Part shown: positions 41,877-46,412 of the stretch, piece by piece | How positions within the stretch are numbered: the first letter of the stretch is position 1 | Layout of the letters: each line of letters begins with the position of its first letter | Assembly (NCBI GenBank): GCA_028286825.1 | Contig: JAQBQV010000005.1 | Coordinates: 1-46,512 of the forward strand | DNA length: 46,512 bases | Reading direction: 5' to 3' | Source of the DNA: Parcubacteria group bacterium | GTDB taxonomy: Bacteria > Patescibacteriota > Minisyncoccia > Phycocordibacterales > Phycocordibacteraceae | Made by a program: the position numbers and the translations under genes | Notes under the pieces: generated by a model | Told to the model about the DNA's origin: nothing | The model's database searches: none | What the model saw: the letters and a program-made list of their open reading frames with translations, nothing else

Positions 41877-42836
41877 ATGCAGACTGTAGTTGGAGTATTA
41901 CGTGGAGGCCCAAGTCGCGAACACGAAGTGTCGCTCAAGACGGGCGCTGCTATACTCGCGAACCTACCCGAGGATAAGTATCTCGCTCGAGATATCTATA
42001 TCGACAAGCAAGGGCAATGGCATGATCGCGGTCGGGCGACTACTCCTGACAAAATTCTTCGACAGATCGATGTGGCCTTTCTAGGGCTCCATGGCGAATA
42101 CGGGGAGGATGGGGAAGTGCAGAAGCTCCTTGAGCGCTTTGGCGTTCCCTACACCGGCTCAGACTCCTTTGGTTCATATCTCGCAATGCACAAGATCATG
42201 AGTAAGCACAAGGCCGAGGAGGTCGGACTTCTCACACCAAAGTTCCACTATATCGAACGTGCGAGCGATGCTGAGGCGATCGCTCGAGAAGTGGTACAGC
42301 ATTTCCGTCAGCCAGTAGTAGTGAAGCCCGTTGCTTGGGGTTCGTCTGTTGGCGTATCGATAGTGGGCGGCTACGCGCCAGTTTTGGCAGCGATTCAGCA
42401 CCTTTTTAATGAAGGGTCACCCACCGTCGTCGTTGAGGAATTTATTAAGGGTCAAGAGGCAACAGCAGGGGTAGTAGAAGGTTTGCGAGGCGAGCAACTA
42501 TATACACTCCCACCCATTGAGATCATTCCCCCTACCGGCGACTTCTTTTCATACAATTCAAAGTATTCTGGCGAGACTCGCGAGATCTGCCCCGGCAACT
42601 TTACTCGAGTCGAGAGCGAAGAGCTCCAACGACTCTCTAAGGTAATGCATCGGGCTCTAGGATTACGCCACTATTCGCGAAGCGACTTTATTGTCACGCC
42701 AAAAGGCATTTACTATCTTGAGACCAATACGCTCCCCGGCCTCACGGCAGAGTCACTCCTCCCGAAGTCCCTTGCATCAGTCGGGGTCGCGTTTCCCGAT
42801 TTCCTGGCGCATCTCATTGGCCTTGCGCGTACATGA
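41877..42836 (+). CDS. ddl: D-alanine--D-alanine ligase
   Basis: GGPSREHEVSL, LHGEYGEDG, VVKP..GSSVG, KY, RSDF and ETNTLPG. Confidence 0.97.
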   Translation: MQTVVGVLRGGPSREHEVSLKTGAAILANLPEDKYLARDIYIDKQGQWHDRGRATTPDKILRQIDVAFLGLHGEYGEDGEVQKLLERFGVPYTGSDSFGSYLAMHKIMSKHKAEEVGLLTPKFHYIERASDAEAIAREVVQHFRQPVVVKPVAWGSSVGVSIVGGYAPVLAAIQHLFNEGSPTVVVEEFIKGQEATAGVVEGLRGEQLYTLPPIEIIPPTGDFFSYNSKYSGETREICPGNFTRVESEELQRLSKVMHRALGLRHYSRSDFIVTPKGIYYLETNTLPGLTAESLLPKSLASVGVAFPDFLAHLIGLART

Positions 42837-42861
42837 ACTGAGATGATAAGGTAGTAATAAT

Positions 42862-42934
42862 GGGCCGTTAGCTCAGTTGGTAGAGCACCTCATTTGCAAT
42901 GAGGGGGTCGCAGGTTCAAATCCTGTACGGTCCA
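42862..42934 (+). tRNA. tRNA-Ala (anticodon UGC), CCA not encoded
   Basis: Acceptor stem GGGCCGT/ACGGTCC with G3-U70, anticodon arm CCTCA-TTTGCAA-TGAGG, and T-loop TTCAAAT. Confidence 0.96.
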
Positions 42935-43124
42935 CAAATTGAATTGGAGAGCCCCGGAAGGGGCTTTTCAATTTGTGGACCGTAAGCAGAGTGCGGGGCA
43001 CTCTGCGGCAGGATTTGAAGGACGGAACAAGTCGAGCCAGCAGGTGAGACAGTGAGGCAGGGTAGCGGAAATTCATGAGCGACGGCGAACGAATTATCCG
43101 TGACCAGATCCTGTACGGTCCACA
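42915..43124. repeat. tRNA-3'-end-derived element with inverted and direct repeats
   Basis: 17-bp direct repeat ATCCTGTACGGTCCACA at 42920-42936 and 43108-43124; split inverted copy at 42967-42984 plus 43009-43019. Confidence 0.9.
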
Positions 43125-43241
43125 CTTGTTCACAAAGTCAAGGTTTCCGTCATTCCGTATTGGTGCGCTTAGGTTTCGGGAGGTTCTAATCTTAAAGAAA
43201 CGGAAGTTGAAAAAGAGGCTTAAATGTTTCATAATTCAACT

Positions 43242-44297
43242 ATGCTCAACCAGTCTTCTCTAATAAGAGAAATACGAAAAACAATAGACAGCGCGAATAT
43301 CAACTTCTTGGTTGGAGCCGGTCTTTCTAGGCCTTTTCTTGATGTACTCAATGATATTGAAGTATTTCTCAGTGATGATTCAAAAACACCGGAAGAAATA
43401 AGAAATAAAAAGAAGGAGTACTTCAACAAGGTGATGCTTGGGAATCTAAAAATAAGAGACGCTATCTTAGATTCTAGTAAAGATGAGGTTTTGGCTGACT
43501 ATAAGAATTTCTACAAAATTATTAATAATCTTGTTCTAAGGAGAGAGAATTCCATTCTAACTAAGCAGGTGAATGTATTTACAACAAATATAGATATTTT
43601 TTCAGAAAAAGCTTTGGAGGAGACGGGTTTAGAATTTAATGATGGATTTAATGGACGTTTTAACCCGACATTTAATTTAGGAAACTTCAAGAAGTCATAC
43701 TTCATGAAGAGCCTGCATTACGAAAATACTTCTGAAATACCTGTCTTTAATATACTTAAAATTCATGGCTCGCTGACCTGGAGATACGAGAAGGTTGGTA
43801 ATGATGATCTAATTCTCCTTGATAGGGATTTGGAGAATACAAGAAACATAGAAGCTAAGAAAGATACCCCAGATTTCGACGACTGTTATAAGAAACTTAC
43901 AGTCATCAATCCAACTAAGGATAAATTTGAGCACACACTCCTTCGTCAGTATTTTTATGACCTTTTGAGAATTTATTCAAATGAACTAGAGAAAGAGAAT
44001 AGCGTACTTTTTGTAATGGGTTTTTCCTTCGCAGATGCTCACATCAGGGACATGACAGAAAGAGTTGCTGCCTCAAATCCTACTCTCAAGATATATATAT
44101 TTTCGCATGGTGAGATGACCCCTCTTTATAGGAAATTGAAAGATGACGCTAAGAATAAAAACATTGAAATTTTAATTCCTGAGGAAGGTAAAAATTACAA
44201 TCTCAAGACACTGAACACTGAGATTTTCGAAGAGATTATCCACTTTGACGAGGGCGTTGAAGAAACTCCTGTAGTTGAGCAAGGAGATGAAAAATAA
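43242..44297 (+). CDS. SIR2-like NADase of a SIR2-HerA anti-phage system
   Basis: NFLVGAGLS, VFTTNID, KIHGSLTW and GFSFADAHI. CATAAT 6 nt before ATG 43242. Confidence 0.92.
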   Translation: MLNQSSLIREIRKTIDSANINFLVGAGLSRPFLDVLNDIEVFLSDDSKTPEEIRNKKKEYFNKVMLGNLKIRDAILDSSKDEVLADYKNFYKIINNLVLRRENSILTKQVNVFTTNIDIFSEKALEETGLEFNDGFNGRFNPTFNLGNFKKSYFMKSLHYENTSEIPVFNILKIHGSLTWRYEKVGNDDLILLDRDLENTRNIEAKKDTPDFDDCYKKLTVINPTKDKFEHTLLRQYFYDLLRIYSNELEKENSVLFVMGFSFADAHIRDMTERVAASNPTLKIYIFSHGEMTPLYRKLKDDAKNKNIEILIPEEGKNYNLKTLNTEIFEEIIHFDEGVEETPVVEQGDEK

Positions 44298-46179
44298 CGC
44301 GCTTACAAGTACTTATATTATCGACAATTCGATATTTAGAATCGGAGTAGTTTTTTCTGTTGAAGGACAATCGATAAAGGTAAAGGTTGATAAAGGTAAA
44401 AATAGTTCATCCGTCCTGTATAAGGGAAGCATCATTCAAAATATTTCTGTAGGAGGGTACATAAAGATAAAAAAAGGATTCTCAGAAATGATTGGGAAGA
44501 TCGAGGGAGAATCTATATCCGAAGATAAGGAATTCTCAAGAGTAAGTTACAAGAGTAATAAAGAAAAAATAAACAGGGTACTGAACGTAAAGATTCTTGG
44601 CTTTATTGAGGAGGGTACATTTTGCCGCGGTATCAAGGAGTTACCACTAATTGATAATAAATGTTTCCTGCTAAGCAAGGAAGAATTTGAAGAGATTCAT
44701 AACTTTATTCAAAAGGGCGACGAAAGAATTGAGGTCGGGGCACTAGAATACGATGACGGCCAAAAGATTGATCTAGGAATAAACAGTCTTTTTGCTAGTC
44801 ATATTGGCATTTTTGGAAATACAGGAAGTGGCAAGTCATATACATTGGCCAAGCTATACCGGGAGCTTTTTAAAAAGTTTAAAGATAGTTCAAATTTTAA
44901 ATCGAAAGCAAAATTCTTTCTGATCGATTTCAATGGTGAATATGCGGACGATGACGTAATTATCGAAAAGAAATATAAGAATATTTATAAACTTTCAACT
45001 AGCTCTCCTAATCCTAGTGATAAATTCCCAGTTAAGAAGGAAACCCTAAGGGACGTTGGGTTTTGGTCAATCTTTTTAGAAGCAACAGAGAAAACTCAGA
45101 TACCTTTTATAAATAGAGCAATTAAGGATTCTTATATTGAATCTAAATTGAATACAGAATTAAATTTTAAAACCTTAATAAAAGATAAAATTGAGGCCGC
45201 TACTACAGTAAACGGAAAGAACATAGATAGGGCTTTAACAATCGATTTACTCTATGAGCTAGCTTCCTTTCTTGATAATGAAAGTTTGCGTCAAGCAGGA
45301 CATTATTTTAAACAAAATCTATCCGGAGGAAACGAGAATATTAGTTTTTATTTGAAAACTAACCTGGTACCACCAAACGACAAACTTTTTAGTGACAGGC
45401 CAGCCTTCAAGGAAAAAATTAGTGAGCAGATTGACCTTGTAACATTCGAAGATTTTTCAGGATTATCAGTCATTAAGAAAGTAGGGTTAAGGATTATAAT
45501 TAAGTATTACGACGAAATGATCAGAGGGTTCTCAAACCGTGAACATCTTTCACCCCTGATTAAAAGAATGGAAAAAAGAATCTTAGATTTAGAGAAAGTT
45601 ATCACTGTTCACGGAAGAGAAAGATTTGCAAAAAATCTTACGATTATTTCTCTAAAAGATGTGAATTTAGATATTAGAAAGATGCTGCCATTGCTTATTT
45701 GTAAGGAACTTTATGATACTAAAAAGGAAGCCAATAATAAGGATACATCGCTTCATATAATTATTGATGAGGCACACAATATTCTCTCAGGTAATTCTGA
45801 GAGGGAAAGTGAACAATGGAAAGACTATCGACTTGAAACCTTCGAGGAAATCATCAAGGAAGGCAGAAAATTTGCTACATTCCTTACAATTTCAAGTCAA
45901 AGACCATCCGATATCTCTCCAACGATTATTTCCCAATTACATAACTATTTTCTTCATCGGCTGATAAATAATAATGATTTGCTTGCTGTTGAAAAAACTA
46001 TTGCGTATTTAGATAAAGTTTCTGCTGATTCAATTCCTAATTTAGCAACTGGTACATGTATTTTGGCTGGTTTACTAGCTCAAATCCCAGTCGTCATGAA
46101 GGTAAATAAAATTAGTAATAAAAAGAATCAACCAGTGAGTCAGACGATAAATCTTTTAGAGAAGTGGAAGCCTGTATAG
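44287..46179 (+). CDS. herA: HerA-like ATPase/helicase (DUF87) of the SIR2-HerA system
   Basis: N-terminal beta-barrel, HIGIFGNTGSGKS, IDFNGEY, IIDEAHN, EGRKF and SQRP. The start overlaps the SIR2 stop and has an AAGGAG SD. Confidence 0.93.
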   Translation: MKNNALTSTYIIDNSIFRIGVVFSVEGQSIKVKVDKGKNSSSVLYKGSIIQNISVGGYIKIKKGFSEMIGKIEGESISEDKEFSRVSYKSNKEKINRVLNVKILGFIEEGTFCRGIKELPLIDNKCFLLSKEEFEEIHNFIQKGDERIEVGALEYDDGQKIDLGINSLFASHIGIFGNTGSGKSYTLAKLYRELFKKFKDSSNFKSKAKFFLIDFNGEYADDDVIIEKKYKNIYKLSTSSPNPSDKFPVKKETLRDVGFWSIFLEATEKTQIPFINRAIKDSYIESKLNTELNFKTLIKDKIEAATTVNGKNIDRALTIDLLYELASFLDNESLRQAGHYFKQNLSGGNENISFYLKTNLVPPNDKLFSDRPAFKEKISEQIDLVTFEDFSGLSVIKKVGLRIIIKYYDEMIRGFSNREHLSPLIKRMEKRILDLEKVITVHGRERFAKNLTIISLKDVNLDIRKMLPLLICKELYDTKKEANNKDTSLHIIIDEAHNILSGNSERESEQWKDYRLETFEEIIKEGRKFATFLTISSQRPSDISPTIISQLHNYFLHRLINNNDLLAVEKTIAYLDKVSADSIPNLATGTCILAGLLAQIPVVMKVNKISNKKNQPVSQTINLLEKWKPV

Positions 46180-46412
46180 AAAAAACGGGAGTAAGTAATA
46201 AAGGTTCTAATCTCCGAACTTCTCTAGGCTCTCAAGCTCATTCTCGTCCCTCCAGACCATCCCACGAGTCCACGAGGCGTAAGAAATGTATTGGTCTGGA
46301 TTGGATAAGGGAGGTTCTAATATTCTGCAAGAATGACCACCCGAGAAGACATTGGTGCTGAACTAAGTCTTTCGCCTTAAGAATGCTACATGCTTCAAGA
46401 GTTCCAAATTAA

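Follow-up and report, generated by a model that had tools for sequence, protein, structure and literature searches.

What is the compact array of inverted and direct copies of a tRNA 3' end that lies directly behind an intact tRNA-Ala gene in a Parcubacteria group bacterium? The gene is located in contig C17 of a 675-kb host assembly (24 contigs, about 70% complete). The 46,512 nucleotides of this contig are the window analysed here. uvrA, uvrC and ddl are found upstream of the tRNA-Ala gene and a SIR2-like/HerA-like gene pair is found downstream. A preliminary description had proposed either a non-autonomous, tRNA-targeting mini-element with its own target-matching sequence or an RNA switch affecting tRNA maturation. 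The former is now the best-supported reading, because cognate scaffolds are found elsewhere and an empty site is found in a congener, G022. We estimate at about 55% the probability that positions 42937-43124 are one copy of a gene-less insertion element (ca 100-190 bp) whose preferred sites are in the 3' portion of tRNA and tmRNA genes and, in rare cases, at the 3' end of topA. Such an element would be non-autonomous and target-matched, with no linked gene and no recombinase family that tracks it. The features of the locus are as follows.

42862..42935, + strand: tRNA-Ala (anticodon TGC), intact, without encoded CCA (ARAGORN; Rfam tRNA model, 72.6 bits)
42915..42936, + strand: functional tRNA tail (left copy), running from T54 in the T-loop to past the discriminator (inverted and direct repeats)
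42937..42973, + strand: palindromic trailer with an A/T-rich arm, a GC hairpin (42950-42965) and a complementary arm (repeat analysis, fold)
42974..42984, + strand: antisense of the acceptor 3' strand, the discriminator and 2 nt (11 nt, exact; inverted repeats)
42986..43006, + strand: variable hairpin with a 9-bp stem and a 3-nt loop, interrupting the antisense copy (inverted repeat)
43009..43019, + strand: antisense of the T-loop and T-stem 3' strand (11 nt, exact; inverted repeat, minimum-free-energy fold)
43019..43106, + strand: conserved two-domain scaffold, the family core (covariance model R1, 88.3 bits, E = 1.2e-18)
43105..43124, + strand: right direct copy of the tail, 17/17 identical over 43108-43124 and 19/20 over 43105-43124 (direct repeat, fold)
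43125..43192, + strand: native flank, found directly after tRNA-Ala in G022 (92% identity to G022:C65:5822-5909)

The left tail copy is the target of both antisense arms. The first arm (42974-42984) is able to pair with the tRNA tail or with the downstream copy. The second arm (43009-43019) is exactly complementary to 42915-42925; in the minimum-free-energy fold it supplies the 5' strand of the scaffold-closing helix, and the right tail copy supplies the 3' strand of the closing helices. Our repeat analysis agrees with the arrangement given in the preliminary description: 18-nt arms (42926-42943 and 42967-42984) that are 100% complementary around a hairpin, an inserted hairpin (42986-42994 with 42998-43006), an antisense segment complementary to the T-arm and a 17-bp direct copy. 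The idea that the antisense copy can pair with either the tRNA or the downstream copy also held, both pairings being possible in the repeat analysis and in the folds. The trailer hairpin resembles an intrinsic terminator, yet a consensus terminator scan made no terminator call there. No third copy of the 17-mer tail was found in the 675-kb assembly, with up to 3 mismatches allowed. Folding of the 191-nt insert gave -89.6 kcal/mol, as compared to -55.2 +/- 4.1 kcal/mol for 200 shuffles, none of which equalled it (z = -8.3). The arrangement of repeats and fold exceeds chance.

Short-read assemblies are prone to misjoin repeats near tRNA genes, and the array might in principle be an assembly artefact or a chance arrangement. 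DNA run X1 probably comes from the source sample and is thus not independent of the assembly; its exact-match unitigs tile all junctions (42700-42886, 42879-42935, 42906-42972 and 42943-43400). Moreover, the same architecture is observed in hundreds of independent assemblies. Taken with the fold z value, these data make an artefact or a chance arrangement practically negligible. The preliminary description would have been abandoned for a one-off arrangement or for an assembly artefact; neither was found, since the arrangement recurs at other tRNAs and the junctions are tiled. Three RNA runs matched the tRNA body only, mostly with 3 mismatches, indicating that these matches come from other organisms.

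Comparison within the genus shows what has been added. In the congener G022, a 100% identical tRNA-Ala runs directly into the post-repeat flank, with 92% identity over 88 nt. Because the tRNA is joined to the flank without any insert, positions 42937-43124 of the window correspond to a 188-bp insert, bounded by a 17-20-nt repeat. The trailer is likewise missing from this site, which is the empty allele that the preliminary description had asked for. The right tail copy is probably the displaced original tail. A single filled/empty pair, with a 17-bp repeat that can be deleted by slippage, demonstrates gain or loss and not the direction of the event. The scaffold was found at 0 of 14 further tRNA-Ala loci of the genus. 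The tRNA-Ala of G085 has a scaffold with a different trailer and without the splitting hairpin. Its antisense arm tracks its own T-loop variant, which differs between the G000 and G085 tRNA-Ala genes. Among 120 other genomes of the genus, 43 have relatives of 42985-43107 by BLAST, with 1-7 copies each. Copies at one tRNA type appear orthologous within the genus, so that movement may be rare.

A covariance model of the scaffold, R1, was built as the preliminary description had recommended, and it matches across the order. R1 detected the scaffold in 121 of 151 order genomes and in 108 of 132 genera, with at least 836 matches and up to at least 29 copies in one order genome. Outside the host's family, only 5 of 149 genomes of a phylum sample were positive; for other orders of the class the count was 0 of 5. 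The host genome has 12 R1 matches at 11 loci. Ten of these loci lie 22-83 nt 3' of a tRNA gene on the same strand, so that 10 of the 40 tRNA genes carry the element. In IMG/VR, 46 viral contigs contain the two-motif scaffold pattern and none of the 46 passes R1. An Rfam 15 cmscan of positions 42000-44000 (E <= 1) returned the tRNA and two sub-threshold chance matches only. No description of the family was found in Rfam 15 or by full-text search of the literature, at the level of the opening lines of abstracts. This large family of tRNA-associated elements is apparently undescribed.

The family core was analysed for covariation. From 30 copies aligned with MAFFT, RNAalifold derived a two-domain consensus; compensatory changes are seen at 20 of its 27 pairs. 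Across 38 order-wide copies, 98.5% of cells pair and double changes are seen in 24 of the 27 pairs; this second alignment was fitted to the model, which favours structure, and the independent MAFFT alignment gave the same pattern. None of 500 shuffles equalled the observed covariation, and slid controls pair in 33-48% of cells. G.U pairs outnumber A.C combinations (28:7 and 20:4), which designates the tRNA-sense strand as the folded strand. Selection acts on the structure that the core adopts on the tRNA-sense strand. The helices vary in sequence yet stay paired, which argues for a single-stranded fold and not for double-stranded protein-binding arms.

To describe the arms, 93 copies were pooled (11 from the host genome, 36 from the genus, 37 from the order and 9 from the phylum sample), leaving out one overlapping match in the host genome and one in the order. 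A tRNA or tmRNA on the same strand ends at most 300 nt upstream in 71 of the 93 copies, and at most 98 nt upstream in 69. The genes associated with the 71 copies comprise 17 tRNA types and tmRNA. Scaffolds with tRNA-specific arms, which the preliminary description had proposed to look for, are thus present both in the host genome and in its relatives. In 40 of the 69 copies, the exact match length of the direct repeat lies above the 99th percentile for non-cognate pairs. In the 14 nt that precede the scaffold, the exact match to the complement of the cognate tail has a median length of 8 nt, as compared to 4 nt for non-cognate tails (69 copies). In 32 copies with a gap-free repeat, the contiguous antisense corresponds to tRNA positions 54-64, with an identity of 0.72-1.00; past these positions the antisense is interrupted by a hairpin or absent.

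A common plan emerges. Immediately 5' of the core, about 11 nt are antisense to the local T-loop/T-stem 3' strand. Further 5', a hairpin and the complement of the acceptor 3' strand are often found; the hairpin that splits the antisense copy in the window has an equivalent of different sequence in other copies. On the 3' side, the core is followed by a direct copy of the tRNA tail. This downstream repeat starts at the T-loop (or at the crossover point in topA) and runs to the gene end, and its distal part decays in old copies. On the tRNA-sense strand, the antisense arm pairs with the downstream tail copy, so that target sequence provides the helices that close the core. Two forms can be distinguished. 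Type A, like that of the window, accounts for 42 of the 69 copies and has a direct repeat of at least 8 nt. Type B (27 of 69) lacks the repeat; it has a nearly fixed hairpin trailer of 42-47 nt, and its antisense is limited to 7 nt that are complementary to the extreme end of the tRNA.

Similarity between scaffolds does not track the tRNA type. Among the 25 most similar scaffold pairs (0.88-0.94 identity), 19 are at different tRNA types. G341 and G350 each have two scaffolds that are 91-93% identical and lie behind different tRNAs with their own cognate arms. Hence, either the arms are respecified at each insertion or the scaffolds are homogenised by gene conversion, and such conversion could mimic recent spread.

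A degenerate second tRNA was also considered, in which the arm would be a direct copy of the tRNA 5' strands and the scaffold would sit in the T-loop of the decayed tRNA. This possibility was rejected. The arm is the reverse complement of the T-loop, including positions 59-60 (identity 0.91-1.00), and A, not G, is found opposite U70 in 3 of 4 tRNA-Ala copies.

Some copies have unusual surroundings. At C21:2679-2784 of the host genome and at L028, L049 and L059:62, the scaffold lies behind a non-tRNA sequence with a tRNA-like end and a conserved upstream motif. Here, a different small RNA gene may provide its 3' end as the target. At C6:23186-23327 of the host genome and at L049, L053 and L058:2113, a different module, weakly scored by R1, follows the type B scaffold. 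It is again flanked by antisense and direct T-arm pieces, and may represent a second scaffold class of the same system.

The pairing scheme would also suit a cis-acting RNA module. The anti-tail would pair with the tRNA tail or with its decoy copy, and the scaffold, together with a ligand or a protein, would control 3' maturation, stability or quality control of the tRNA. In a variant of this model, the module would yield a tRNA-like processed RNA. Tail, anti-tail, scaffold and tail copy follow a classic alternative-pairing layout, with three segments able to form mutually exclusive helices. The minimum-free-energy fold of the tRNA plus element joins the antisense arm to the tail, and the downstream copy to the 5' acceptor strand of the tRNA. 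Some elements sit between co-oriented tRNAs 125-155 nt apart, indicating that these tRNAs are co-transcribed with the element. In old copies (C6:35173 of the host genome, L060 and L061), the antisense arm has outlasted the decayed downstream repeat and still matches the functional tail. Finally, the order-wide conservation of the fold is also expected of a host-useful RNA, and no transposase accompanies the element. However, three quarters of the tRNA genes of the host genome do without the element, and close relatives lack it at the same tRNA. The type B copies, with their 7-nt antisense and no direct repeat, also fit this model poorly.

The copies found outside tRNA genes bear directly on this point. 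Four copies, from four families of the order (L062, L071, L076 and L080), are located in the 3' end of topA, identified by its Topoisom_bac and Zn-ribbon Pfam domains. In these copies the antisense measures about 12 nt, and the direct repeat, about 58 nt long, takes in the stop codon. A repeat of this length is expected if the insert must carry or regenerate the gene end to keep the gene whole. For an RNA module it is unexpected, pairing being possible for only about 10 nt. Tandem stacks at a single target were observed in G017, L065 and L080, the last with two stacked copies in topA. At L142, the repeat spans the native terminator of the tRNA over at least 43 nt. Both the stacks and the L142 repeat resemble insertion products. 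The switch proposed in the preliminary description therefore stands in so far as the alternative pairings are possible, and is weakened by the topA copies and the tandem stacks. Overall, we regard an RNA module as a rather unlikely alternative.

Within the reading that we prefer, a target-matched insertion element, the origin of the two tails can be envisaged in two ways. At L081 (G220), the arms correspond to a different tRNA-Asp allele with an unusual T-arm, like that in L074, and not to the adjacent tRNA-Asp. This suggests, from sequence comparison, that the tRNA gene or its tail was replaced after insertion. As to whether the target site is duplicated or the tail is carried by the element, L142 and L081 would point in opposite directions.

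The extent of the repeat raises the question of integrases. A repeat from the T-loop to the tRNA end is reportedly the usual identity block of tyrosine integrases that target the T-loop. The array could thus be a decayed attachment-site remnant of integrase islands or prophages, the scaffold being a former attP arm region. The direct repeat of the family matches this block, and the site behaves as an insertion hotspot, with the SIR2-HerA cassette and an insert in G018 described below. On the other hand, the compensatory covariation in every helix indicates a single-stranded fold, and one scaffold family serves at least 17 tRNA types, tmRNA and topA. One integrase is specific for one site. In addition, left of the crossover, a constant scaffold end is observed instead of a T-stem-like core site, and the motif-bearing viral contigs fail R1. 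Tyrosine recombinases are present in 147 of the 151 order genomes, mostly as one Xer-like gene, in element-free and high-copy genomes alike. A single Xer-like gene is typical even at 17-23 copies (G171, G173, G183, G196, G208 and G218). An attachment-site remnant is therefore improbable. What probability remains is assigned to something else.

Does another enzyme accompany the insertion element? A co-occurring recombinase or nuclease, suggested by the preliminary description, was looked for and none was found. The profiles PF00589, PF07282, PF01548, PF00078, PF01797, PF00239 and PF01974 were searched, and none of them tracks the element. Six-frame ORFs of at least 80 aa from 58 loci were clustered, and no family recurred apart from translated scaffold sequence. 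No integrase lies beside the element at these 58 loci. The host genome has one tyrosine recombinase, which is XerC/D-like. No dif-like site was found near its gene, where only a terminator-like palindrome is observed. In the host genome, 70% assembled, neither TnpB (PF07282) nor an IS110 recombinase (PF01548) was detected. Among five high-copy genomes, 0/5 have TnpB (complete genomes) and 0/5 an IS110 recombinase above cut-off. The splicing endonuclease EndA (PF01974), needed for an archaeal-type tRNA intron, is found in 0/5 high-copy genomes. A serine recombinase was detected in 3 and a Y1 transposase in 4 of the 5 complete high-copy genomes. Y1 transposase-like genes (PF01797) occur in 90 of the 151 order genomes, including the element-free G038, G043, G046, G207 and G221, and were not found in the high-copy G041, G148, G163, G169 and G208.

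A side result of this search concerns multi-copy ORFs of ca 220-260 aa that match only the C-terminal two thirds of the Y1_Tnp profile. Such Y1_Tnp-like ORFs number 13 in G161, 11 in G232, 10 in G159 and 9 in G200, and their distribution is unrelated to that of the mini-element.

The element was compared with known mobile systems. Like integrative elements that target the T-loop, and like CIMEs, it is inserted in the 3' part of tRNA genes, has a T-loop-to-end direct repeat that keeps the tRNA intact and stacks in tandem at one tRNA. As in CIMEs, the element has no integrase of its own. In contrast to these systems, a single covariation-supported core is shared by the copies at 17 or more tRNA types, at tmRNA and at topA. 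This core is immediately preceded, on its 5' side, by an antisense copy of the target, and no integrase is present beyond one Xer-like gene. Of the features that define CIMEs and att sites, the direct repeats of the target end are present, whereas a cognate integrase and double-stranded protein-binding arms are absent.

Integron attC sites and CTX-phage attP resemble the element in that the site is defined by its fold, with little sequence conservation in the stems, and in that inverted and direct boxes pair to rebuild a target-like duplex. For CTX attP, the recombination is carried out by the housekeeping XerCD of the host; the use of Xer by the present element is a guess. Unlike in integrons, no IntI-type integrase, attI site or cassette array is found here. 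Furthermore, the paired boxes are copied from each target, whereas attC boxes share a 7-nt consensus core.

IS110 and IS1111 elements reportedly use bridge (seek) RNAs, and IS200/IS605 elements are said to use omega RNAs of TnpB and IscB. Like these, our element would be a structured non-coding RNA within a mobile element, and it has target-complementary segments and a scaffold followed by target-derived sequence. It differs from IS110 bridge RNAs and from TnpB/IscB omega RNAs in that the IS110 recombinase, TnpB and any Rfam match are absent. Moreover, its antisense and sense arms span the same nucleotides and pair with each other; bridge-RNA guides are not known to do so.

REP/REPIN elements mobilised by RAYTs, and MITEs, are also short, multi-copy, hairpin-rich, gene-less and intergenic; they are moved in trans, as the present element would be. 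The flanking repeats of the present family, however, are target sequence and not element sequence. Unlike in the REPIN/RAYT case, the copies are placed at tRNA 3' ends, on one strand, and Y1_Tnp-like genes do not track them. For SINE-like elements, retrons and group II introns, a reverse transcriptase (PF00078) is expected; none was detected in the host genome (70% complete), and 2 of the 5 complete high-copy genomes have one. For the T-loop-targeting integrative elements, the attC and attP sites and the bridge and omega RNAs, the defining protein is in each case lacking.

A mechanism of insertion can be envisaged. The extent of the repeat, and an antisense arm flush with the scaffold, fit insertion at the TTCRA of the T-loop. 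Integration would occur at this conserved motif. A new tail and trailer would restore the gene, and the old tail would be pushed to the right. With the hairpin trailer of the element placed behind an intact tail, the tRNA stays functional. The folded sense strand might be recognised by a trans-acting enzyme, probably a housekeeping one. The enzyme could meet this strand as an RNA, transcribed when the tRNA promoter is read through, or as single-stranded DNA. The antisense arm would either provide or reflect the choice of target. More generally, the target-matched arms suggest a base-pairing rule for site choice.

In a more radical version, insertion would be programmed by base pairing and would require no protein gene of the element. 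The antisense arm would serve as a guide to the target, which could be any tRNA tail, tmRNA or topA, the scaffold would recruit Xer, a tRNA-processing enzyme or a repair enzyme, or would itself be catalytic, and the 3' end of the gene would be rebuilt. Under this guide model, the near-identical scaffolds with unrelated arms in G341 and G350 would be recent re-targeting events. We consider this version unlikely.

If an insertion element is indeed involved, an order of ultra-small bacteria holds from several to more than 20 structured non-coding copies per genome. Essential tRNA genes would be targeted without breakage and without any encoded or co-occurring transposase or integrase that can be recognised. 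This raises a testable question: what moves these elements, or what do they do for the tRNAs? In practice, annotators can use R1 to mark hundreds of tRNA 3'-end duplications in Patescibacteria, which without it would pass for integrase scars or misassemblies.

The region downstream of the mini-element also deserves description. In G018 (C29:4016-5540), tRNA-Ala and the flank homologue are about 1.36 kb apart, which represents a further insertion, unlike that of the window, at this hotspot. In the window, the SIR2-like/HerA-like pair (43224-46179) is bracketed by exact 11-nt direct repeats. The sites are 43182-43192, 46203-46213 and 46313-46323, one of them being a third copy with one mismatch. 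Four matches are found in the window for 0.86 expected. The 11-nt motif sits in a T-arm-like hairpin. Judging from these repeats, the SIR2/HerA defence pair looks like a separate cassette of ca 3 kb, inserted downstream of the mini-element at a site that resembles a tRNA fragment. In G022 the motif occurs once, and the sequence diverges directly after it.
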